NCBI GenBank assembly: GCA_963741205.1
Contig: CAVUHW010000036.1
Span: 1-58,096 of the forward strand
Origin: Nitrospirota bacterium
GTDB taxonomy: Bacteria > Nitrospirota > UBA9217
Direction of reading: 5' to 3'
Length of the DNA stretch: 58,096 nt
Positions within the stretch are counted from its first letter, which is position 1. Every line of letters starts with the position of its first letter. A model generated the notes under the pieces. That model was not told the origin of the DNA, did no database searches, and saw nothing but the letters and a program-made list of their open reading frames with translations. Made by a program: the position numbers and the translations under genes. Positions 4,662 to 31,479 of this stretch are shown here, piece after piece.

Positions 4662-6296
4662 ATGGCGCCAGGAATTTTGGTTTTCATCGAAAACAAAGAG
4701 GAAAAATCTTTTTTCGACAATTTACTGAAAACCGATGCTTTCCCTTTTTTTGAGACCCATATTTCCCTCGAAGCGATAAATATTCTTCAGGAGAACGATA
4801 TCGGTTTGATCATAGCAGGTAGTGTCATGGCAGGGATCAGGGGTGAGCAGTTCAAGTTGATCGCCGAGAAGATACGGCCCGGCGTCAATACCGTTCTGAT
4901 CGGTCCCCTCTCCCGGGAGAAAAACGGATTTCTCATCGCCACTGAGGAATTTAAGAACCTCATCCACAGTTCCGTTAAAACCGAGCATACGCTCCGGAGA
5001 GAACTGGGGGATGCAAAACAGCTCGTATTCGCGCTCGCCGACCGATTGCTGCAGATATTCGGTGTCAATGACCGGTATTTTTTCAACAACGACCATCTCG
5101 TCGCTGATCTTTCCTATAAACTGGCCATGAAGATGGGACTCGAAGAAAATCTGGTGAATTCCATTCGCTTGGCGGCGCTGCTCCGTGATCTGGGAAAAGT
5201 CGGGATTAAGCTTCAACTCCTCGAGGGAAACGTCAGGCTGAAACAGAGCGAATTGACTCCTATCAAGGAGCACCCGCTCCATACGGTCCAGCTGTTACGA
5301 CAGATTCAGTTTCCCTGGAATCTGGAATTCATCATCAGCCAGCATCATGAGCACTATGATGGAAGCGGCTATCCCCACGGCTACTCCGGGAGGCAGATAT
5401 GCATCGGGGCGCGCATTATCAGCGTCGCAGACGCCTTTTATGCAATGACGACGGACCGCCCCTATCGTAACGCGTTGGCTCAAGTCTGGGCGGTGGAGGA
5501 AATAAGAAAGAACGCGGGAGGCCAATTCGATCCTGAGGTTGTTGAGGTCCTTCTTTCCGTCCTCAAGGAAGAACCGGCCATCAAAACCTCGGATAAGAAT
5601 GTTTTGATCTTCCAAAGGGAAAATCATATCGCGGCACTGATCAAGTTGAGCACGATTGCCGACGAAATGCAGATCTTCCACACGTCCAGCGCCATTGACG
5701 CCATCTTATACATCAGGCAAAAGAAACCCGTCCTCGTCATCACCGATATCGAGGCGCTCGAGCCTGAAACGACTTCCCGGTTTTCCCATATCGTCATCCA
5801 GACGGCGAAAGCGCAGGAGCGGAAAGTGCTGATCGTTACTCCCGACAAAAACTATCCGCGGATCATCGGGGGTGACGTCGACTACATTTCACAACCCATC
5901 GACATTCCAGCATTGACAAAAAAGATCCATGAACTTACCAGCAAGGGACTTCAGCCGGCATCCCCGGAGGCAAAACGAGAAGGGCTTACGGGCAAGATAG
6001 AGGAATTCAGCCTTCCCGATATTATCCAGATCCTGAGCTTAGGCCTGAAGACGGCCAAGGTGGAGGTTGACGGATACGGGGGAAACGGCGTGCTGTATAT
6101 TCAGAGCGGGAAAATCGTACATGCCACTGTGGGAAAACTCCGCGGTCCCCAGGCATTCCTGGAACTCGTGCGCTGGAAGAAAGGACAATTCTGCATCAAG
6201 CACAGCCAGATAACGGACGACATCAATGTGACCACGGACACCAGTAACCTTCTGTTCGAAGCCGCTAAACATGTGGATCGGGAGTTGACCGCGTAG
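4662..6296 (+). CDS. REC-like / degenerate HD-GYP / REC-like / DUF4388 (PATAN-like) signalling protein
   Basis: HHEHYDGSGYP, ARIISVADAFYAMTTDRPYR and QFDPEVV are HD-GYP motifs, but HD reads RD (LLRDLGK). C-terminal GLTGKIEEFSLPDIIQIL...G.IVHA is DUF4388-like. Confidence 0.85.
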   Translation: MAPGILVFIENKEEKSFFDNLLKTDAFPFFETHISLEAINILQENDIGLIIAGSVMAGIRGEQFKLIAEKIRPGVNTVLIGPLSREKNGFLIATEEFKNLIHSSVKTEHTLRRELGDAKQLVFALADRLLQIFGVNDRYFFNNDHLVADLSYKLAMKMGLEENLVNSIRLAALLRDLGKVGIKLQLLEGNVRLKQSELTPIKEHPLHTVQLLRQIQFPWNLEFIISQHHEHYDGSGYPHGYSGRQICIGARIISVADAFYAMTTDRPYRNALAQVWAVEEIRKNAGGQFDPEVVEVLLSVLKEEPAIKTSDKNVLIFQRENHIAALIKLSTIADEMQIFHTSSAIDAILYIRQKKPVLVITDIEALEPETTSRFSHIVIQTAKAQERKVLIVTPDKNYPRIIGGDVDYISQPIDIPALTKKIHELTSKGLQPASPEAKREGLTGKIEEFSLPDIIQILSLGLKTAKVEVDGYGGNGVLYIQSGKIVHATVGKLRGPQAFLELVRWKKGQFCIKHSQITDDINVTTDTSNLLFEAAKHVDRELTA

Positions 6297-19765: not shown

Positions 19766-19841
19766 GCGGGTGTAGCTCAGTTGGTAGAGCGCGACCTTGC
19801 CAAGGTTGAGGTCACGGGTTCGAGTCCCGCCACCCGCTCCA
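19766..19841 (+). tRNA. tRNA-Gly(GCC)
   Basis: GCGGGTG/CACCCGC acceptor stem, anticodon loop TTGCCAA, GGTTCGAGTCC T-arm, encoded CCA. Confidence 0.97.
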
Positions 19842-19922: not shown

Positions 19923-19998
19923 GGCGGCGTAGCCAAGTGGCTAAGGCAGAGGTCTGCAAAACCTTCATTCATCGGTTCAAATCCGATCGCCGCCTCCA
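19923..19998 (+). tRNA. tRNA-Cys(GCA)
   Basis: GGCGGCG/CGCCGCC acceptor stem, anticodon loop CTGCAAA, GGTTCAAATCC T-arm, U73 discriminator and CCA. Confidence 0.97.
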
Positions 19999-20016: not shown

Positions 20017-20143
20017 ACCACAGATAAACACAGATTAACACAGATTGACACCGTATAAGGGACGATAAGCCTTCTTGGTTCTGATTTTTCGCTCTTATTC
20101 TGAGTCTCCTCTTTATCTGTGTGCATCCGTATTCATCTGTGGT
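20017..20143. repeat. Inverted element with 10-bp-periodic ACACAGAT arms
   Basis: ACCACAGATAAACACAGATTAACACAGAT ... ATCTGTGTGCATCCGTATTCATCTGTGGT. Confidence 0.75.
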
Positions 20144-20166
20144 TTCTTATTTGTGGGTCCTACTCT

Positions 20167-23100
20167 ATGCATCATGCCGATTTCGTCCACCTTCACCTTC
20201 ACACCGAATACAGCCTCCTAGACGGCGCGATCGGCCTCGACAAACTCATCAAAAAAGCAATCGACCTCAAGATGCCCGCGGTTGCGGTCACGGACCACGG
20301 CAATCTATTCTCCGCTCTCGACTTCTATCTGAAGGCCTCCAAGGCCGGGATCAAGCCCATCATCGGGTGCGAAATCTACGTGGCGCCGGGCTCCCGATTC
20401 GATAAAAGCGCGCCCGCGGGCCAGAATGAGGAGGCTTCGTATCACCTTATTCTCCTTGCGCGGAACAGGCAGGGCTATAAAAACCTCGTCAAGCTCGTTA
20501 CCGCCGCATACCTCGAGGGCTTCTACTACAAACCCAGGATAGACAAGGACCTCCTCCGGACGCACAGCGAAGGACTCATCGGCCTGTCGGCCTGCCTGGG
20601 CGGAGAGGTCCCTTCCCTTCTGATCCAGGGCAGGTACGAGGACGCAAAGAGGACCGCCCTCGAATATGAACAGATACTGGGCAAGGAAAACTTTTACCTC
20701 GAGCTCCAGGACAACGGCATCCCCGAGCAGGAAGTAGTGAACCGGGAGCTCATCAAACTGACGAGGGACACGGGCATCCCCGTCGTCGCCACAAACGACT
20801 GTCATTACCTGGACATGGAGGACCACAAGGCGCATGACGCGCTCCTCTGCATCCAGACCGGCAAGGTCGTCAAGGACGCGAACCGGCTGAGATTCTCTTC
20901 CGAGACCTTTTACATGAAAACCCCGGAAGAAATGAAGAAGGCCTTCTCCTTCATCCCCGAGGCTGTAACGAACACCGTCAAGATCGCCGAACGGTGCAAT
21001 CTCGACCTTGAGCTCGGCAAATACCATCTCCCCCACTTCCCCGTGCCCGACGGCTACACCAGGGAATCGTTCATGACGGAACTGGCGCGAAAAGGGCCTC
21101 GAAGAGCGGTTTGCCGAGATCGAGGCCGTCCGCGGGCCCGGCAGCATCGACCGGGCAAAATACCGGGAGCGTCTCGAGTTCGAGATCCAGATGATCGACA
21201 AGATGGGCTTTGCCGGATATTTTCTCATCGTCTCGGACTTTATCCGCTATGCAAAGGAGCACAGTATTCCGGTCGGCCCGGGCCGAGGCTCCGCGGCCGG
21301 GAGCCTGGTCGCCTACTCGCTCCGCATCACCGACCTCGATCCCATCCCCTACAACCTCCTGTTCGAGCGGTTTCTGAACCCCGAACGCATCAGCATGCCG
21401 GATATCGACGTGGACTTCTGTCAGGACCGGCGCGACGAGGTCATCCGGTACGTGACCGAAAAGTACGGTCAGGACCACGTGACCCAGATCATCACCTACG
21501 GCACCATGCTGGCCAAGGGAGTGATCCGTGACGTCGGCCGGGTCCTCGACATCCCCTATTCCGAAGTCGACAAGGTTGCCAAGCTGGTCCCGAACACGCT
21601 GGGCATCACGCTCGAAAAGGCCATGGAGCAGGAACCCAGGCTCAGGGAGATCGCCAAGAAGGAGCCCCGCATGGCGGAACTCATGGAGATAGCCCGGGCG
21701 CTCGAAGGACAGGTGCGCCACGCCTCAAAGCACGCCGCCGGCGTCGTCATTTCCCAGGAGCCCCTCACCGAGTACGTACCGCTCTTCAAGACCCCCAAGG
21801 ACGAGATAACGACGCAGTTCGATATGAAAGGCGTTGAGAAGATCGGCCTCGTGAAATTCGACTTCCTCGGACTCCGGAACCTCACGGTCATCCAGAAGGC
21901 CGAGAACATGATCAATCAGCGCCTTCAGAAGGCCCCCCTTGCCTGCACGGATCCTTTCTCGGTCAGCCGGGTCCCCCTCGACGACGCAAAGACCTTTGAG
22001 CTCCTGGGCCGCGGAGAGACCGCCGGCATCTTTCAGCTCGAATCCTCGGGCATGCGCGATATCGTCATCAAGATGAAACCGGGGGTGTTCGAAGACCTGA
22101 TCGCGCTGGTGGCCCTGTACCGCCCCGGCCCGCTGGGCAGCGGCATGGTCGACGATTTCATCAAACGAAAGAAAGGCTCGACCAGAATCACCTACGAGCT
22201 TCCTCAGCTCGAACCCATCCTCAAAGAGACCTACGGCGTGATCGTGTATCAGGAGCAGGTGATGCAGATCGCCCGGACCCTTGCCGGCTATTCGCTCGGC
22301 GGCGCCGATCTCCTCCGGCGCGCCATGGGGAAAAAAGACCCCGAAGTCATGGCCAAGGAGAAGGTGCCCTTCCTCAAGGGCGCGGAGAAACAGGGCATCG
22401 ACCTCAAGAAGGCGGAGGCCATCTTCGACCTCATGGCCAAGTTCGCCGAATACGGGTTCAACAAGTCCCACAGCGCGGCCTATGCCCTCATCACCTACCA
22501 GACGGCGTACCTGAAGGCCCACTACCCCGTAGAATACATGGCAGCCCTGCTCACCTCGGAAGTCGCCGACACGGACAAGGTGGTGAAGTACATCTACGAG
22601 GCGCGCCAGATGGGCATCAACATCCTGCCGCCCGACGTCAACGAGAGCCGCTGGGATTTTACCGTCATGGAAGCACACGACCGCGAGAGCATCGAGCCCG
22701 GCAGCACCATCGGGAGCATCCGGTTCGGCCTTGCCGCGGTCAAGAACGTGGGAATTTCCGCCATCGAAGCGATGATCGAGGCCCGCGAGGCAAAAGGCGC
22801 ATTCACGTCGCTTTCCGATTTCTGCAAAAAGGTGGACCAGCGCAGGGTGAACCGACGCGTGATCGAGGCCTCGATCAAGTGCGGCGCCTTCGATTTTACC
22901 GGGGCCAGGCGCGCCCAGATGATGGACGCCATCGATATGATGATGGAGGGGGCGGCAAGACACCAGGAACAGGAGGCCGTGGGCCAGTTCAGCATCTTCG
23001 AGTCCATGGACGAAAAGCATGAGCCCGCGCTTCCGAACGTTCCGGAATGGAAGGAAAGTCAGCTCCTTGCCTACGAGAAAGAGAGCATGGGATTCTACAT

Positions 23101-23686
23101 CTCGGGACATCCCCTGGCGGCCTTTCAGGACGACATAAAGCGCTATGCCACCGCCACCACGGAAACGCTGGACAGTTTCCCGGACGGCAAGGAAGTGACC
23201 ATCTGCGGGATCATCGCCGGCTTGAAACAAAAGGTCACGAAAAAAGGCGACAAGATGGCCATCCTGAACCTCGAGGACCTTTACGGGACCGTTGAAACCA
23301 TCGTGTTCCCCGATCTCTATTCATCATCCCACCACCTGCTCCTTACCGATACGCCGCTCATCGTGGCCGGCCAACTCGATAAGAGCGAACAGGGAAACAA
23401 GATCAAGGCCCTGCGTCTTCACCTTTTGGCCGACGTGAAGAAGAAAGGCACGTCGCGCATCGACATCAGGCTGTCCGCAACCGGCCTGACCCAGGACGAC
23501 CTGCTCAAAATCAAGGAAGTCCTGCTTCGCCATCGAGGCAACATACCCGTCTATCTCCGCCTCCAGAACCCGACGCGCAAGGACTCCCTTATCTCCGTTG
23601 GCCGCGATATCCGCGTCGCTCCTACGGAAAAGCTTATAGCCGAAATAGAGTCGGTGCTTGGAGCAGGCGCCGTGTCATTTAATTGA
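20167..23686 (+). CDS. dnaE: DNA polymerase III alpha subunit (single frameshift near 21097)
   Basis: PHP HLHTEYSLLDGA, GPGRGSAAGS, PDIDVDF, KFDFLGL, YGFNKSH and OB fold. An extra base in AAAGGGCCTCGAAGAG joins the two ORFs. Confidence 0.97.
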
Positions 23687-23714
23687 TGGGAGAAAAAAGA
23701 GGAGGTGCATTTCC

Positions 23715-24734
23715 ATGAAACATAGCGACCTGGAAACCACGGCGCGCGCCCTGGCCGCCAAAGGCAAGGGCCTTCTCGCGGCGGACGAAAGCTTCCCAAC
23801 GATTAAGAAACGCTTCGAGGCCCTGGGCATAGAATCGACGGAGGAAACCCGACGCGCTTACCGTGAGATGCTGCTTACTACGACGGGGATCGAAGAATTC
23901 ATCAGCGGCGTGATCCTGTTCGATGAGACCATACGCCAAAAGGCCGGAGACGGCAGGTCCCTTGTCGAGGTGCTCAAGAGCAAAGGAATCATCCCGGGCA
24001 TCAAAGTCGACAAAGGGACCGTTTCCATGCCCGGCTTCCCCGGCGAGAAAATCACCGCGGGACTCGACGGACTCGGTGAACGGCTGAACGAGTACCGGGA
24101 CCTTGGGGCGGGATTCGCCAAGTGGCGTGCTGTTATCACAATAGGTCCCGGCATGCCTTCGCGGGCGAACATCATTGCAAACGCCCACGGCCTCGCGCTG
24201 TATGCCTCCCTTTCCCAGGAAGCGGGGCTGGTTCCCGTGGTGGAGCCCGAGGTCTTGATGGACGGCGATCACGACATCACCCGCTGTGAAGAAGCAACTG
24301 AGGCCGCACTTGGTACTGTATTCTCCATGCTCCGTGAATACCGGGTGAAACTCGACGGAATGCTTTTAAAACCCAACATGATCCTTCCCGGGAAAAAATC
24401 CACGAAGCAGTCGTCCGTCACGGAAGTCGCCGAAGCCACGCTTCGCTGCCTGAGAAAAACGGTTCCTGCCGCGGTGCCAGGCATCATGTTCCTTTCGGGC
24501 GGCCAGAGCCCTGAAGAGGCTACGTTGCGTCTCAATGCCATGAACAGACTGGGGCCGCATCCCTGGGAGATCAGTTTCTCCTTTGCGCGGGCGCTGCAGG
24601 AACCACCGATGAAAATATGGAAGGGATCGGCTGCGAATATCGCGGCTGCCCAGAGGCAGTTTTATCACCGGGCGAAATGCAACAGCGCGGCGAGATACGG
24701 GAGATACGCGGAACAGATGGAGTCGGCGACGTAA
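23715..24734 (+). CDS. Class I fructose-bisphosphate aldolase
   Basis: GLLAADES, GIKVDKG, AKWRAV, VEPEVL, Schiff-base LLKPNM and FLSGGQ. SD GGAGG before ATG 23715. Confidence 0.95.
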   Translation: MKHSDLETTARALAAKGKGLLAADESFPTIKKRFEALGIESTEETRRAYREMLLTTTGIEEFISGVILFDETIRQKAGDGRSLVEVLKSKGIIPGIKVDKGTVSMPGFPGEKITAGLDGLGERLNEYRDLGAGFAKWRAVITIGPGMPSRANIIANAHGLALYASLSQEAGLVPVVEPEVLMDGDHDITRCEEATEAALGTVFSMLREYRVKLDGMLLKPNMILPGKKSTKQSSVTEVAEATLRCLRKTVPAAVPGIMFLSGGQSPEEATLRLNAMNRLGPHPWEISFSFARALQEPPMKIWKGSAANIAAAQRQFYHRAKCNSAARYGRYAEQMESAT

Positions 24735-24818
24735 CATTAGCATAACCACGCCGGAATGACAGCTAAATGCCAAGTATCGTCACACTTCAATAAAAAGGCC
24801 GCTGCAGTAATAATATTT

Positions 24819-25250
24819 ATGGAAAACTCTCTTCTTGAAGGCTATCCCGTCGTCGTTGAGATTCCCGTGGCCTGGGGCGAGATGGACTCGTTTCAGCACG
24901 TAAACAACGTCGTCTATTTCCGGTATTTCGAGAGCGCCCGCATCGCATATTCGGAGAAGATCGGGCTTCAGGAACATAAGGAACAGACGGGCATCGGACC
25001 CATTCTCGGTTCTACGACCTGCAAATACAAACTCCCCCTCACTTATCCTGATACCGTGTCCGTTGGAGCAAAGATCGTCGGTATTGAAGAAGACCGCTTC
25101 ACGATGAGCTATATTATCGTGAGCCACCGGCATCAGAAAATCGCCGCGGAAGGAGACGGTGTAGTTGTGATGTACGATTACAACGAAGGCAGAAAGACTG
25201 TGATCCCGGACGAGATCAGGCTTCGGATCCAGGAGATAGAACAGCGGTAA
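24819..25250 (+). CDS. Acyl-CoA thioesterase (4HBT/YbgC-like)
   Basis: WGEMDSFQHVNNVVYFRYFESARI. Confidence 0.9.
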   Translation: MENSLLEGYPVVVEIPVAWGEMDSFQHVNNVVYFRYFESARIAYSEKIGLQEHKEQTGIGPILGSTTCKYKLPLTYPDTVSVGAKIVGIEEDRFTMSYIIVSHRHQKIAAEGDGVVVMYDYNEGRKTVIPDEIRLRIQEIEQR

Positions 25251-25404
25251 ACTAAATCATCAAACGAATTTTTACCGAGGAGTCGCGAAAAGCATCTACG
25301 AAGACCCTGCTCAGAAACTCCTTGATCACTATTTATATTAAGTGCCGAGTATAGCAACCCCCCACTCCGGTTATCATCGATAAAACACCATGAGTATAAA
25401 AGGG

Positions 25405-25460
25405 GGAAATAAAAAGCCCTCCTGTTCGGCATCGTAACGTGACGCCTTGAGAGAGGGCTT
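25405..25460 (-). terminator. Intrinsic terminator downstream of the response regulator
   Basis: Minus strand AAGCCCTC...GAGGGCTT followed by TTTATTT, with an inner GGCGTC/GATGCC hairpin. Confidence 0.65.
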
Positions 25461-25550
25461 CGTGACCCTGGGTTCTGCCGTCGAGAGCAAAAAAGCAGGT
25501 ATTCGGTAAATCTATAATGTCTGCATGGTCCCTAAGGTGCTTACCAGACA

Positions 25551-26030
25551 TCAGGGAATGTATTCATCCCTGCTTCCCGGTTCATCATCTTTTCCGTCAT
25601 GATAATGGCCTTTGAGCGTCTCTTGAAGATCGCCGATTTCCTTTTTTAAAGCCTGAATATAATGAAAACGCGTCCAGGCGAACGTTAGCGCGGGTTGGAG
25701 CCCGTCTAGATCTAGAGGCTTTACAAGATATCCGGAAACACCAATGGCGTCAGCTTGTGAGATCAAGTCGGGCTCGCTGTATGCCGACAGGATCACAATA
25801 GGCAATGGCCGCTTTTCGAGAATACGCTTCGACGCCTCGAGGCCGTCCATATCGGCCATCTTGATATCCATGAGGACCAGGTCCGGTGACAGGCTGATCG
25901 CCTTCTCAATTCCCTGTGTTCCGCTGCACGCGCAGTCAACGATGGTATGGCCGATGTTCTCAAGCACACCTGCAAGGCCCGAGCAGACGGCTGCATTATC
26001 GACGACGATCAATATTCTGAGACGTAACAT
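25551..26030 (-). CDS. Response regulator of the AmiR/NasT/PdtaR type lacking the ANTAR domain
   Basis: REC (DLVLMDIKM, SAYS, YLVKP) plus a coiled-coil linker (TRF..IQALKKEIGDLQETL) that normally precedes ANTAR. The sequence diverges there and stops. Confidence 0.8.
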   Translation of the reverse strand: MLRLRILIVVDNAAVCSGLAGVLENIGHTIVDCACSGTQGIEKAISLSPDLVLMDIKMADMDGLEASKRILEKRPLPIVILSAYSEPDLISQADAIGVSGYLVKPLDLDGLQPALTFAWTRFHYIQALKKEIGDLQETLKGHYHDGKDDEPGSRDEYIP

Positions 26031-26443
26031 ACCAGTAAGACCTTGTTATTGTCAGGAGTCAGACTGCAAATGCAGCAAAAGCTATGACATGCATTCAGGA
26101 CGATAGCGGGAAATGCTTCTCGCTCTAATAAAAGCACGTCGCCAGAAAGGCTCCTGTTTAACCTTCGGGATAGGCAGACTCCGTGACAAGTCAGTTCCTC
26201 ATGCATAATTTTGAATTATATTGTTCTAATATCTAAATCAATGTCATATAACGATGCAAAATGAATGCTAATAATCTTACACAGAAATCAGCTATAAAAA
26301 TCCTGAGTTACTATTGTTCATGCAATATGCAACCAAATAAGATGGGGTGATACCCCCCGCATAAGGGTGATTTGGCCCCATTAAATCTTCCTTTGCAATC
26401 AGAGTCGAACAATTAATTCCTCAGTCCTGCATATCGCTCATCA

Positions 26444-26502
26444 GGTGAAATAGCCAGCGTCTTTGGTGAAATGACCAGCGTCCAAATATTATTTCTAGCG
26501 TC
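26444..26502. promoter_or_regulatory. Direct repeats with about 21-bp period (candidate activator sites)
   Basis: GGTGAAATAGCCAGCGTC (26444-61), GGTGAAATGACCAGCGTC (26465-82) and a partial AGCGTC (26497-502). Confidence 0.55.
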
Positions 26503-26606
26503 ACCATTTGCGCCGGATATCTTCCTTTTTGCTTATCTCTCTGTCCTGGCTGAATATTTCAATTAACTTTTAATTTTATCTATCCCTTATTTATTTGTTA
26601 TCCGCG

Positions 26607-26622
26607 CGGCACAAGAGTTGCA
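26607..26622 (+). promoter_or_regulatory. sigma54 (-24/-12) promoter
   Basis: CGGCAC-AAGAG-TTGCA matches YGGCAC-N5-TTGCW. Confidence 0.65.
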
Positions 26623-26658
26623 ATGAATGTAGAAATTAAATGATTCTGAAAAAATGAC

Positions 26659-26687
26659 TTGACTTAAATCCTCGATCCGTTTATAAA
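26659..26687 (+). promoter_or_regulatory. sigma70-type promoter
   Basis: TTGACT-17 nt-TATAAA. Confidence 0.55.
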
Positions 26688-26787
26688 AGGCAACGTTTCA
26701 CATCAAAATCGCATGAGGTCTTGCTGCCGAGAGCGGTCTTTAAGAAGAAATCACCGCTCAATGCCATAAATGTAGAATCAAATCATA

Positions 26788-26873
26788 GATACACGATAAT
26801 ACTTAACCACTCGCGAGGGTGGGGCGGAAAGCCTTCAGGATCTCTTTTGAGACAGCCGGGTTGCCGAAATATC
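26788..26873 (+). ncRNA. GEMM-I (c-di-GMP-I family) riboswitch aptamer, 3',3'-cGAMP-type (GEMM-Ib), copy 1
   Basis: GATACACGATAATACTTAACCACTC-GCGA-GGGTGGGGCGGAAAGCC...TCTC-TTTT-GAGACAGCCGGGTTGCCGAAATATC: GNRA-capped P2, GGAAAGCC junction and P3. A at the Vc2-G20-equivalent position (26801). Confidence 0.9.
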
Positions 26874-26907
26874 TAATCGATATGGAGGCAACCCGGTTTT
26901 TGTTTTT
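26855..26907 (+). terminator. Riboswitch expression platform terminator 1
   Basis: CCGGGTTGCC (26856-65) pairs with GGCAACCCGG (26887-96), then TTTTTGTTTTT; the 5' arm lies inside the aptamer. Confidence 0.85.
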
Positions 26908-26980
26908 GCGGGTCGTCATGCGCGCACTTGCTGCGCAGCGGTTTCGTTTCCTACGGTCGGACCACAATACAGCAGCACAC

Positions 26981-27065
26981 GATACACGACAATACTTAAC
27001 CACTCGCGAGGGTGGGGCGGAAAGCCTTCAGGATCTCTATGAGACAGCCGGGCTGCCGAAATATC
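26981..27065 (+). ncRNA. GEMM-I riboswitch aptamer, 3',3'-cGAMP-type, copy 2
   Basis: Near-identical copy 193 nt downstream (GATACACGACAATACTTAACC...GCTGCCGAAATATC); discriminator A at 26994. Confidence 0.9.
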
Positions 27066-27096
27066 TTTCGATATTGAGGCGTCCGGCTTTTTTATT
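27047..27096 (+). terminator. Riboswitch expression platform terminator 2
   Basis: GCCGGGCTGCC (27047-57) pairs with GGCGTCCGGC (27078-87), then TTTTTTATT. Confidence 0.8.
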
Positions 27097-27207
27097 GCTC
27101 AAAGGAAGGAGGTGGCTGCGGGGGTATCTCCATTCGGCCGATGGGCCGATAAAAAATTGCAGAGCAGATGGATTCTGAACTCAATCAATAAACGCGGGAG
27201 GAAAGAG

Positions 27208-29484
27208 ATGAAAAAAGTCGTTGTAATACTCAGTGTCCTAGCCATGGTGTGCGCCCTGGTGATCCCTGCAGCTTTCGCAGAAGAAGGAACGTATTCGACG
27301 TATACGTTGACCGTTGCCTCTTCGAATCCAAGCAGCGGCGTCGCCATTGCCGTCAGCCCGAATGACAGGAACGGACGTGGAAACGGCACGACCCAGTTCA
27401 CGAGGAGCTATCGTTCCAGCACGAGTATAACCCTTACCGCCCCTGCAACAGCGAGCGGGAACACCTTCCAAAAATGGCAAAGAGATGGTTATGATTACTC
27501 CACCAATAGAACGATAACCTTCAGCCTGTCCAGAAACAGAACAATGAAGGCGGTCTATACGACCTCAACAACGACCAGCTATACTCTGACCGTCGCCTCT
27601 TCCAACCCGGCGAGCGGCGTGGGCGTAACCGTCAGTCCGGCCGACAGAAACGGCCAGGGTAACGGCACGACGCAGTTCACCCGCTCCTATAACGGCGGCA
27701 CAACGGTGACCCTTGCAGCGCCCTCGACAGCTGGCGGCAACAACTTCCAGAAATGGCAGAAGAACGGAGTTGACGCCGCTACCACGCAGACCACGAGCGT
27801 CACGATGAGCGCCAACACCACCATGACCGCGGTGTACGTAACACCAACAACGACGACGAGCTATACCCTGACCGTCGCCTCCTCCAACCCGGCGAGCGGC
27901 GTGGCCGTAACCGTCAGTCCGGCCGACAGAAACGGCCAGGGAAACGGCACGACACAGTTCACCCGCTCCTATAACGGCGGCACAACGGTGACCCTTACCG
28001 CGCCTTCCACCGCGAACGGCAACAACTTCCAGAAATGGCAGAAGAACGGAGTTGACGCCGCTACCACGCAGACCACGAGCGTCACGATGAGCGCCAACAC
28101 CACGATGACCGCGGTATACGCTGCCGCGGTATCTACGTCGGGAAATTATGTGATTCTTGCCAGCAATGACCTCGGTATGCACTGTGCATGTCCTGGCGTT
28201 GGCAATTTCCTGCTCCTTCCGCCTTTCAACACGATCAGGGCACAGGCCTTCCAAAGAGGGGGCGATCCGGTTGCCTTAGGCGATACAAGCAGATACAGAA
28301 TGACCTACTCGATCCTGGAAAATACCGATGCCAATCTTCAGGCGGACCCCTATTTTGCCGACTGGATCAAATGGTCTCCAAAATTATTCCCCGGTTTTCT
28401 TCCTGTCAGGGCTGACGGAAGGGTCCAGAGCATATCGGGCGCAACCCTGAGCGGCGATATGACCGTGAAGGCCGGTTCCGGCGCATGGTGGGAGGTAGTA
28501 GGCGTGCCCGCTTTCCCGGTGGTGACCGGCACCGCCACGGACATCATGATCGACCCCCTCGGCGGCCCGAACAGGACCCCCTATTTGACGGGCCGTATTC
28601 AGCTTCTCGACAAAGCGACAAGCGCCGTCCTCGCTACCGACGACATTACGGTGCCGGTGGCCTTCGGCGGCTGCTGCAATTGTCACCTGAAAGTTGCGGA
28701 GTCTTACGGGTATGCCAATGCCACCCCGGCGGACTCTTTCAAGGTCATGGGCTGGCTGCACAGCAATAAAGGCGAGGCAGGCAAGATCGATTTCGCCAAA
28801 CTCGACCCGACCGGCGATGGAACCGGCGGCCCCATCCGCTGCTCATGGTGCCATTGGGACCCCGCCATGGGTGAAGCTGCCGCCCCCGGCCTGGCAAACG
28901 TCTGGCCGAACTACAGCATCCTTGCCGGCGCGAATTTCACCAAGGCGGATGTTAAAGTATCGCAGTATACCTTCTCCGACGTGCTTCACCGGTGGCATGC
29001 GGAGAGCTCCGTGGTCCTCGGGTCTTACGACGCCAACATCGCGAAGAACTGCTATGACTGCCATCCGGGCAACAATGTAAACTGCTACAGGGACACCCAT
29101 ACGACCAAGACCATCAACGGTAACGCGATCTGGTGCACGGACTGCCACGGCGACCTGAACCAGAGGATCGCGCAGAAACAAATGGACAAGCCCTGGTCCG
29201 ACACGACCCTGCCGAAGTGCTCCACCTGCCACGGCAGTAATTACGGCGAAGGCGGCGGGTACTTGAATATGGGCATCTTCGGCCAGTTCCTGAACAGCAG
29301 CGGCCATGAAAGCAATAAGGTCCTCTGCTCATCCTGCCATGGTTCGCCGCATGCTCTGAATTCCTCCAGCCTCGCTAAGGACAATGAGCAGAACCTCAGG
29401 CTGCAGAACGATTCCCGGGCAATCGGAGTCTGCAACGTTTGCCATACGAGCAGAAGCAATACCTGGAGCGTACCGCCTCATTAA
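27208..29484 (+). CDS. Secreted multiheme c-type cytochrome (7 CxxCH) with three N-terminal Thr-rich repeat domains
   Basis: Sec signal MKKVVVILS...AFA and SD GGGAGG. Three 86-aa repeats, a NDLGMHC motif, and heme motifs CCNCH, CSWCH, CYDCH, CTDCH, CSTCH, CSSCH, CNVCH. Confidence 0.92.
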   Translation: MKKVVVILSVLAMVCALVIPAAFAEEGTYSTYTLTVASSNPSSGVAIAVSPNDRNGRGNGTTQFTRSYRSSTSITLTAPATASGNTFQKWQRDGYDYSTNRTITFSLSRNRTMKAVYTTSTTTSYTLTVASSNPASGVGVTVSPADRNGQGNGTTQFTRSYNGGTTVTLAAPSTAGGNNFQKWQKNGVDAATTQTTSVTMSANTTMTAVYVTPTTTTSYTLTVASSNPASGVAVTVSPADRNGQGNGTTQFTRSYNGGTTVTLTAPSTANGNNFQKWQKNGVDAATTQTTSVTMSANTTMTAVYAAAVSTSGNYVILASNDLGMHCACPGVGNFLLLPPFNTIRAQAFQRGGDPVALGDTSRYRMTYSILENTDANLQADPYFADWIKWSPKLFPGFLPVRADGRVQSISGATLSGDMTVKAGSGAWWEVVGVPAFPVVTGTATDIMIDPLGGPNRTPYLTGRIQLLDKATSAVLATDDITVPVAFGGCCNCHLKVAESYGYANATPADSFKVMGWLHSNKGEAGKIDFAKLDPTGDGTGGPIRCSWCHWDPAMGEAAAPGLANVWPNYSILAGANFTKADVKVSQYTFSDVLHRWHAESSVVLGSYDANIAKNCYDCHPGNNVNCYRDTHTTKTINGNAIWCTDCHGDLNQRIAQKQMDKPWSDTTLPKCSTCHGSNYGEGGGYLNMGIFGQFLNSSGHESNKVLCSSCHGSPHALNSSSLAKDNEQNLRLQNDSRAIGVCNVCHTSRSNTWSVPPH
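27301..28119 (+). repeat. Three intragenic 258-bp repeats (InlB-B-repeat/Flg_new-like beta domains)
   Basis: Units at 27301-27558, 27580-27837 and 27862-28119 (YTLTVASSNP...FQKWQ..G...TMTAVY). Units 2 and 3 are nearly identical at DNA level. Confidence 0.9.
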
Positions 29485-29505
29485 GAACAAGAACGAATAT
29501 CGACC

Positions 29506-29539
29506 AGAGAGGGAGGACGCTGTCCTCCCTCTCTTTTTT
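29506..29539 (+). terminator. Intrinsic terminator after the cytochrome
   Basis: AGAGAGGGAGGAC-GCT-GTCCTCCCTCTCT followed by a T run. Confidence 0.85.
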
Positions 29540-29589
29540 AAAAGATCCCTGAAAACTATCCAGGAACCGACACGAAAGGGGAAGTAAGA

Positions 29590-30585
29590 ATGAACTGCTT
29601 TAAAAAAGTACTGCCGCTGACAACACTGGTCATAGTGCTCATGGCATCATTTGTTTCTTTTTCATACGCCGTTGAGAAAAACAAAGAACCTGAAAAGAAG
29701 ATCGATCCGGCGATGACCCTGAAATTCATTCAAAGCTGGTCCACGAGGGACAAATGGGACAAGTTCCCCGAGTCCCCTTCTTTTGCCTATTACAATATCT
29801 ACTCCTTGAAGGCCTTGAACGGCGACATTACTCCCGAACTCAGGAAAAAAGTCGTCGATACTCTTAAAAGCTGCCAGATGAAGGACGGCGGGTTTTCCGC
29901 GGGTCCGGGATACGGTACGGATTCAAATACGATCTTCACCTATTACTCGCTGGCCACTCTCGACCTTCTTGGCGCTCTGGATTCCATTGATCGGAAACAG
30001 GCTGTCGGCTATATCTCTTCTCTGGTCCAGAAAGAGGGCGGCATCAAGGCGAAAACCTCAGACACGAGCGCCAGTCTGGCCACGACCTATTACGGGATCG
30101 CCTCGCTCGGGCTGCTGAACGCGCTCGACACCGTGGACAAAAAGAGCGTGATTGCCTACATCAATACCTATCGGGAGGACCGCAAGGGATATTGTCTTAT
30201 TCCGGGCAAGATATCCATGCCCGGTGCGACGTTCATGGCCGTGAAGTCGCTTTCTCTTCTTGGCGGGCTGACCCCCGACATCCGGACAGAGGTCGTGAAC
30301 TATCTGAAGGAATCGCGTTATTCGGGGCTCGTAAAAAACAAGAAGTACACATCCCTGCCGAATGTTGAAGATATGGCGGCCGTGCTCCAGACGCTCGCCG
30401 AGCTTTCCTCATTGAACATTATCGACAAGAAGAGCGTCTATCGATTCATTGAATCGCTCTACATTCCGGAAAACGGCGGATTCGGCCCGGAGCCGGGACT
30501 CGGTACGACCCCGCCAAGCACGTACTATGCGATCGCATGCCTTGACAAGCTCGGTAAACTGGGCAAGAAGGCGCCCGTAAAATGA
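29590..30585 (+). CDS. Secreted prenyltransferase/squalene-oxidase-repeat (GGTase-beta-like) protein
   Basis: Signal peptide; repeats CQMKDGGF...TYYSLATLDLLG, QKEGGI...TYYGIASLGLL and PENGGFG...STYYAIACL. Confidence 0.78.
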   Translation: MNCFKKVLPLTTLVIVLMASFVSFSYAVEKNKEPEKKIDPAMTLKFIQSWSTRDKWDKFPESPSFAYYNIYSLKALNGDITPELRKKVVDTLKSCQMKDGGFSAGPGYGTDSNTIFTYYSLATLDLLGALDSIDRKQAVGYISSLVQKEGGIKAKTSDTSASLATTYYGIASLGLLNALDTVDKKSVIAYINTYREDRKGYCLIPGKISMPGATFMAVKSLSLLGGLTPDIRTEVVNYLKESRYSGLVKNKKYTSLPNVEDMAAVLQTLAELSSLNIIDKKSVYRFIESLYIPENGGFGPEPGLGTTPPSTYYAIACLDKLGKLGKKAPVK

Positions 30586-30804
30586 CCCGGCGGTGATGTC
30601 TCCCTCTGCGACATGAGCTTCCCGGAGCATGGCATGCGGAAGCGGCGGCATATCCATGCGGCATGCTCCGGTTTCCACCAACTGCGTTTCCGTTCCGGTC
30701 CCTCCCCGTTCTTGACAGAACCTCCTGTTGCCGGTATAGTGGCGCTTACGCATTCATCAGAACGGCGACACGCCTCACCCTGCGGCGCGGAAAGGCTTCC
30801 CGGC

Positions 30805-31479
30805 ATGGCATCTTCAGGTACTCTTCAGACATATCTCGAACGATACGCGCTCATTTCACTCGAAAAACAGGACAAGCTGGAGTCACTGATCGGAGAGCAC
30901 CTGCACGAACTCGATCTTTACGCAGGCACAATCCGTTTCAACGAACTCGAATTTCCCATTCAGGTGATCGGGACGGAGTCCGACAACACTCTCACATGGC
31001 TCTGGGCATGGGCGGATGAACAGTTCGAACTCCCCGCAAGCCTGCTCCAGTCCGCCATTCAACTGCGAACCTGGGGCGCGGACGCGGGCATCCCGGAATT
31101 CACCATGCCCTCCGTGGACCTCAACAGGGCCGACGGGCACGCAATCGCCATGATCGCCGCGGAAGTCTGCAAGGCAAGCTGCTACTACCGGGACGGTTAC
31201 GAGGGCGGAGCGGCCTATTTCTTGCTTTTCGACAGAGCCATCGACAGCGCCCCGTCCTTCGACCGCGCGCGTCTGATGATCCGGATGGCTGACCTCTTTT
31301 CCCGATATGATCTCAACCATCGGAATACGCTCCTTTCCTATTTGACCGCGAAAGGGCTGTCCCCGGTTGCGGAGAGGAATCTGATCAACTGTGAACTTGA
31401 ATCAGGAGAGAGGCTGATCGCCGAATTTGACGATGCGGGACGGTTGATCGTCGTTAACGGAGCGGCATTTGAGATGTAA
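30805..31479 (+). CDS. hypothetical protein (DUF6882-like)
   Basis: EKQDKL...QVIGTES...TWLWAWA pattern; start placed at ATG 30805. Confidence 0.6.
   Translation: MASSGTLQTYLERYALISLEKQDKLESLIGEHLHELDLYAGTIRFNELEFPIQVIGTESDNTLTWLWAWADEQFELPASLLQSAIQLRTWGADAGIPEFTMPSVDLNRADGHAIAMIAAEVCKASCYYRDGYEGGAAYFLLFDRAIDSAPSFDRARLMIRMADLFSRYDLNHRNTLLSYLTAKGLSPVAERNLINCELESGERLIAEFDDAGRLIVVNGAAFEM

Follow-up and report, generated by a model that had tools for sequence, protein, structure and literature searches.

The leader of a cytochrome gene on a 58,096-nt contig assigned to Nitrospirota (the whole stretch analysed, hereafter the window) carries two riboswitch aptamers in series. It raises the question of which dinucleotide these aptamers sense, and whether 3',3'-cGAMP controls cytochromes outside Geobacterales. 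The region probably consists of tandem ON switches that prefer cGAMP, built on A-type (GEMM-Ib-like) GEMM-I aptamers. Riboswitches of this kind, their tandem arrangement and their switching logic are known already; the host lineage and its unusual candidate cyclases are new.

A Rfam scan of the whole window returned four matches above threshold: two tRNA genes (19766-19838 and 19923-19995, + strand, 66 bits each) and two copies of the c-di-GMP-I family, RF01051.

26791..26868, + strand: aptamer 1, GEMM-I fold, A-type (A at 26801), RF01051 39.6 bits
26984..27060, + strand: aptamer 2, GEMM-I fold, A-type (A at 26994), RF01051 38.3 bits

Both scores exceed the gathering cut-off of 35 bits, and both alignments span the full model (positions 1-87). 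The aptamers start 193 nt apart and, read side by side, differ by 3 substitutions and 1 indel over 78 columns. The initial annotation, which had described two near-identical aptamers at this distance and assigned them to the c-di-GMP-I/GEMM-I fold, is therefore borne out. It had also placed an A at the position of Vc2 G20 (26801 and 26994), and RF01051 model position 11, the purine in contact with the ligand, is indeed A in both copies, where the consensus has an unpaired G directly 5' of the first G-C pair. We take model position 11 to be Vc2 G20 of the Vc2 structure. Two aptamer studies are consistent with this (PMC9481103, PMC6140456).

Each aptamer is followed by an intrinsic terminator of its own, recovered by folding.

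26855..26907, + strand: terminator 1, an 11-bp stem (26855-26865/26887-26897) around a small inner hairpin, then the U-tract TTTTTGTTTTT
27046..27094, + strand: terminator 2, a stem (27046-27057/27078-27088) with one bulged U, then TTTTTT

The two stretches fold at -29.5 kcal/mol (z -6.1) and -29.8 kcal/mol (z -5.8), respectively, and in both cases 0 of 200 shuffles was as stable. The 5' arm of each terminator is the 3' strand of the same aptamer's second helix and contains the invariant GCC. Because both structures compete for this strand, aptamer and terminator are mutually exclusive; the overlapping terminators proposed earlier were recovered by folding, and the overlap predicts the ON logic. 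The compensatory differences reported between the two terminators are real in one instance (a U-A pair replaced by C-G), but they are few, and another pair is lost to the bulged U. With two aptamers of the same class and a separate terminator for each in a single leader, the arrangement is that of a tandem homotypic riboswitch.

The proposed mechanism follows the logic described for the Geobacter pilM cGAMP ON switch (PMC9262584). When ligand is absent, the 3' strand of the second aptamer helix would pair downstream, form the intrinsic terminator and stop transcription. When ligand is bound, the aptamer would retain this strand and RNA polymerase would continue. Two successive read-throughs would be needed, and because read-through must happen twice, the output should approximate the product of two binding curves, leaking less and responding more steeply to the one ligand. 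The AND-like, sharpened response suggested earlier holds in so far as steeper and less leaky expression is expected; the term AND-like is loose because both copies sense one ligand, so that a single-input response is expected. The scan for promoter-like sites, in which the -10 hexamer must end in T, found none on the + strand between the two copies. Upstream of both copies, a candidate promoter was read by eye; its TATAAA, ending in A, escapes that scan.

26659..26687, + strand: candidate sigma-70 promoter, TTGACT, 17-nt spacer, TATAAA

Downstream of the second terminator, a single gene is available for control.

27196..27210, + strand: ribosome-binding site GGGAGG and ATG start, read from the sequence
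27208..29484, + strand: controlled gene of 758 aa with a signal peptide, three InlB B-repeat domains and a C-terminal part carrying 7 CxxCH motifs (Pfam and translation)
29506..29540, + strand: intrinsic terminator 3' of the cytochrome gene, 13-bp stem and T-tract (terminator scan)

Pfam matches to the product comprise Flg_new_2 (2.2e-13), MtrC/MtrF domains II-IV (1.9e-7) and Cytochrome_C7 (6.6e-7). The claim that the switches precede a cytochrome gene is upheld: the product is secreted and, with seven CxxCH motifs, multihaem. No sequence related to it was found in the PDB, and its ESM Atlas matches, none above 0.83, were clusters of generic cytochrome c7/MtrC type. The cytochrome unit is monocistronic because a strong intrinsic terminator closes the gene. 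Directly beyond that terminator, a gene (window 29590-30585, + strand) encodes a secreted product containing a prenyltransferase alpha-alpha toroid domain.

The identity of the host determines whether this locus extends known biology. The aldolase encoded about 2 kb upstream shares 75% and 74% identity with proteins from two metagenome-assembled genomes (MAGs) titled Nitrospirota/Nitrospirae, the next best match being at 68%. The locus from the first of these MAGs (L015) comprises 13 frames with a median best-match identity of 75.4% to the host genome, while no other named locus with at least 5 frames exceeds a median of 61%. The second, Nitrospirae-named locus (L016) reaches a median of 52% over 5 frames, some of them probably spurious. 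The host genome also encodes dsrA, found as two adjacent pieces. Judging from these sequence comparisons, we place this DsrA-encoding host in Nitrospirota, as labelled by the submitters, and not in Geobacterales. The nearest relatives thus agree with the earlier proviso that the locus would be of interest if its host lay outside Geobacterales. What the switches would control in this host is a secreted cytochrome with seven haem sites and InlB-type repeats. Within the window, dnaE is split into overlapping + strand frames, 20119-21531 (PHP domain) and 21191-23686 (polymerase core). Since dnaE, dsrA, a HAMP-GGDDF gene and several HD-GYP genes are all split, assembly indels are the likely cause, and these are unlikely to be pseudogenes.

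The host assembly (4.27 Mb, 50 contigs, 84% complete) contains 13 RF01051 matches, all but one above the cut-off, which were read as 8 A-type and 5 G-type aptamers. A-type copies share the signature AATACTNAACC...GGCGGAAA, and G-type copies read AAAGCC.A.CC...GACGGAAA-like. A pattern search added a ninth A-type copy, cut by a contig end, bringing the A-type set to 9 copies on 6 contigs with three tandem pairs (in the window and on contigs C21 and C19). At C9:33892-33924 and C30:5911-5946 of this genome lie the contig-end A-type aptamer and a degenerate look-alike (AATAATTAACC...), the latter with no Rfam match. The five G-type GEMM-I aptamers, which score higher against RF01051 (39.5-63.6 bits), are located as follows.

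C5:9082-9161: G-type aptamer
C5:23596-23675: G-type aptamer
C26:311015-311095: G-type aptamer
C40:39984-40063: G-type aptamer
C15:36186-36262: G-type aptamer

A-type copies in the host precede lipoprotein and c-type cytochrome genes. The genes that follow G-type copies include one resembling cytidylate kinase, one for a small CxxC protein and one for a CBS-like protein, the cytidylate-kinase-like and CBS-like labels having been assigned by eye from the translations. The two types precede different genes and therefore control separate gene sets; the G-type aptamers, whose genes are unrelated to cytochromes, presumably form a separate c-di-GMP regulon. With a secreted seven-CxxCH protein in the window and lipoproteins and cytochromes at the other loci, the A-type set has the surface and electron-transfer character of a GEMM-Ib regulon.

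Conservation in relatives provides further evidence. A same-genus genome (G007) carries the same tandem pair, 162 nt apart, upstream of the orthologous cytochrome. Of 301 genomes sampled across the phylum, 23 matched a looser A-type pattern. Seven of these matches, from 6 genomes outside the host family and 1 inside it (G127), were of another sequence type and were discarded as chance: none matched RF01051, while the A-type controls L208 and L211 did. A-type aptamers were found in 15 of the 63 other genomes of the host family versus 0 of the 237 remaining genomes of the phylum sample, with a search pattern that fixes flanking bases, so that divergent A-type aptamers could escape it.

In total, 30 distinct A-type copies were found, of which 27 were aligned and 3 were dropped as over-long after automatic trimming. 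The key A is invariant in all 27, as are the GNRA-capped first hairpin (GCGA loop), the GGAAAGCC junction with its AAA, and the GCCGAA tail that supplies the 3' GCC. This invariant GCC presumably includes the C that pairs with a ligand guanine, the counterpart of Vc2 C92. Across the 27 copies, the paired fraction is 94.8% for the aptamer helices and 93.0% for the terminator helices, compared with 14-48% for slid partners. The A-type copies are so alike that covariation is weak: of 500 shuffles each, 82 reached the observed score for the aptamer helices and 28 that for the terminator helices. Alignment column 73 pairs alternately, with column 43 in the aptamer (GC 9, GU 7, AU 5) and with column 109 in the terminator (CG 13, UA 4, UG 4). 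The first downstream frames of the 24 A-type loci mostly open with a lipoprotein-like signal, as judged by eye. At least one CxxCH occurs in the listed frame at 10 of the 24 loci, a count in which frames are cut by the locus end and the window's own seven CxxCH motifs fall beyond the stretch examined.

Compared with literature descriptions, the closest parallel is the GEMM-Ib system of Geobacter. Geobacter GEMM-Ib shares with the present system the GEMM-I fold bearing an A, terminator-based ON switching, tandem copies, a regulon of extracellular cytochromes and lipoproteins, and G-type c-di-GMP switches in the same genome (PMC6456294). In G. sulfurreducens, tandem GEMM-Ib switches precede omcAHG (GSU2885), whose control depends on GacA (PMC6456294). 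Unlike Geobacter, the host here is nearest to Nitrospirota MAGs and encodes DsrA, and the controlled cytochrome carries InlB-type repeats and has no PDB relative. Tandem c-di-GMP-I riboswitches are themselves well documented: the survey of Sherlock et al. 2022 counts 347 doublets and 12 triplets (PMC9481103). The 'pseudo-cooperative' examples with multiple expression platforms in that survey likewise combine two same-class aptamers with their own terminators, whereas both copies here are of the A-type variant. An A-type GEMM-I aptamer outside Geobacter is also described there, from Desulfobacca acetoxidans; in-line probing gave a marked gain in c-AMP-GMP affinity, with c-di-GMP binding perhaps slightly weaker (PMC9481103). 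That aptamer is paired with an AdoCbl switch in a member of Desulfobacterota, in contrast to the homotypic tandem found here in another phylum.

To identify candidate sources of the ligand, 21 of the 23 GGDEF stretches in the host genome were read, two small fragments of one broken gene being left out. The base-recognition motif was readable in 19 domains, of which 16 carry Asp and 3 carry Ser at the position of GacA Ser348. Two of the serine-type enzymes are GAF-GGDEF paralogs, examined together with their family at loci L172-L195.

C15:131635-132780, - strand: GAF-GGDEF paralog
C28:101302-102444, - strand: GAF-GGDEF paralog

Their best PDB match is 6d9m, the Hypr GGDEF domain of GacA (4.2e-32), followed by WspR (1.3e-29). 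Their GHLEGS motif aligns with GHLVGS of 6d9m and places Ser at Ser348, a residue also present in the GGDDF protein described below. Both have Tyr instead of Arg at the cross-dimer position 304 (NYR). In both, however, the signature reads RYGGEEF and lacks the central Asp of GGDE[F/Y]. GacA, GacB (a GAF-GGDEF protein of Myxococcus) and GSU1937 resemble the host enzymes in Ser348, the cross-dimer Tyr and GAF or HAMP N-terminal domains (10.1101/600031 and PMC8835794). The host GAF paralogs differ in having GGEEF in place of GGDEF; because of this substitution, they were not filed as Hypr GGDEFs. According to PMC6456294, mutants of GacA and WspR that combine Ser348 with GGEEF have no activity, and every natural Ser/Thr enzyme has GGDE[F/Y], the 'Goldilocks' rule.

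Orthologs of the GAF-GGDEF proteins occur in 23 of 24 family genomes at 58-72% identity. Tyr, Ser and GGEEF are all kept at 22 of 22 motif-readable loci (the host's own and 21 relatives; 24 read), and this conservation argues for a function of the family. The third serine-type GGDEF is a HAMP-GGDDF protein, split by one frameshift relative to its 470-aa orthologs. A protein of this architecture, GSU1937, contributes to cGAMP in G. sulfurreducens (PMC8835794). No Rec-GGDEF ortholog of GacA bearing Ser was seen in the host, unlike in Geobacter; its serine-type enzymes are of the GAF-GGEEF and HAMP-GGDDF kinds. The earlier suggestion to look for a Hypr GGDEF thus had a mixed outcome: this 84% complete genome has three serine-type GGDEFs, two of them with GGEEF and the third frameshifted. 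A search of the same genome for SMODS-family cyclases gave no match, and one for DncV-like enzymes matched neither the host genome nor the controls.

On the degradation side, the RxxQ/N signature of cGAMP-specific phosphodiesterases, as given in 10.1101/600031, was present in 0 of 9 readable HD-GYP domains of the host. At the inferred RPYR site, 7 of these have RxxR, 1 has RxxK and 1 has RxxH. An HD-GYP protein of 544 aa with the canonical RPYR motif is encoded in the window itself (4662-6296, + strand).

With both sides of the signalling system described, the identity of the ligand can be weighed. The ligand is most probably 3',3'-cGAMP, which the serine-type GGDEF cyclases of the host would supply. 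In the literature, a G-to-A change at the key position separates cGAMP-binding from c-di-GMP-binding GEMM-I aptamers (PMC6140456, PMC9481103), and the A-bearing Geobacter aptamers that were tested are strongly cGAMP-selective, about 1200-fold for pgcA (PMC6456294). The A by itself is no proof of selectivity, because Vc2 G20A binds both c-di-GMP (53 nM) and cGAMP (120 nM) and the A-type aptamer of Clostridium beijerinckii is bispecific (PMC6140456). These precedents lend substance to a second reading, in which the same tandem ON switches have A-type aptamers that answer c-di-GMP, or both dinucleotides, and form a second regulon with a different threshold. The predominance of canonical Asp-type cyclases (16 of 19), the GGEEF of the serine-type GAF-GGDEFs, which predicts inactivity under the published rule (PMC6456294), and the lack of RxxQ/N among the 9 readable HD-GYP domains all point in that direction. 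Against it, G-type and A-type aptamers share the genome but control disjoint gene sets, as in Geobacter, and the key A is kept in 27 of 27 aligned copies; together with the strong selectivity of the Geobacter aptamers, this makes an answer to c-di-GMP rather unlikely, if well short of negligible.

The preference for cGAMP would fit a broader proposal, which is put forward tentatively and may well prove wrong: that a Nitrospirota family with dissimilatory sulfite reductase runs its own cGAMP pathway, in which GAF-GGDEFs with GGEEF, Ser348 and Tyr304 make the messenger and A-type switches, often in tandem, turn on cytochromes and lipoproteins in some species. The A-type switch is patchily distributed in the host family, yet nearly all of its genomes have both serine-type GGDEF families, a mismatch that counts against the cGAMP reading. 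In the article texts searched, nothing linked GEMM-Ib, cGAMP riboswitches or Hypr GGDEFs with Nitrospirota; six short aptamer motifs matched only unrelated primers in full-text literature. If the ligand is confirmed, the second messenger that acts on Geobacter cytochromes would also govern those on the surface of uncultured Nitrospirota from soil and sediment, providing a handle on when these bacteria deploy them. A pathway of their own would bring cGAMP control of extracellular electron transfer to a second phylum. Should the GGEEF GAF-GGDEFs make cGAMP, the 'Goldilocks' rule of GGDEF substrate choice, a published structural rule that the conserved Ser/GGEEF enzymes can test directly, would have to be revised.

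Two further alternatives concern the locus itself. The cassette could be foreign, either on a mis-binned contig from a Geobacter-like organism or through a very recent transfer, with a ligand that the host does not make. The contamination estimate of the assembly is 4.94%, and A-type aptamers are almost identical across paralogs and genera, as recent spread predicts. In addition, the aldolase and DUF6882 genes are adjacent in the Nitrospirae MAG locus (L016:1-2260), where neither a switch nor a cytochrome separates them; in the corresponding stretch of the window (23658-31479), they are separated by genes for a thioesterase and a response regulator, the two switches, the cytochrome gene and the prenyltransferase-like gene. 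However, the aldolase on this very contig shares 75% and 74% identity with those of the Nitrospirota-labelled MAGs, the entire switch-cytochrome unit has an ortholog in the same-genus genome, and A-type copies lie on 6 host contigs and in 15 of 63 other family genomes, so that a foreign origin appears improbable.

Least probable is that regulation lies with the gene-proximal switch alone, the upstream copy being a duplicate in decay: the second helix has a G-U pair in aptamer 1 where aptamer 2 has G-C, and the loops differ, but both copies score above the Rfam cut-off, both terminators are intact, the pair is kept in the same-genus genome, and 6 of the 24 examined A-type loci are tandem with a spacing of 162-193 nt.
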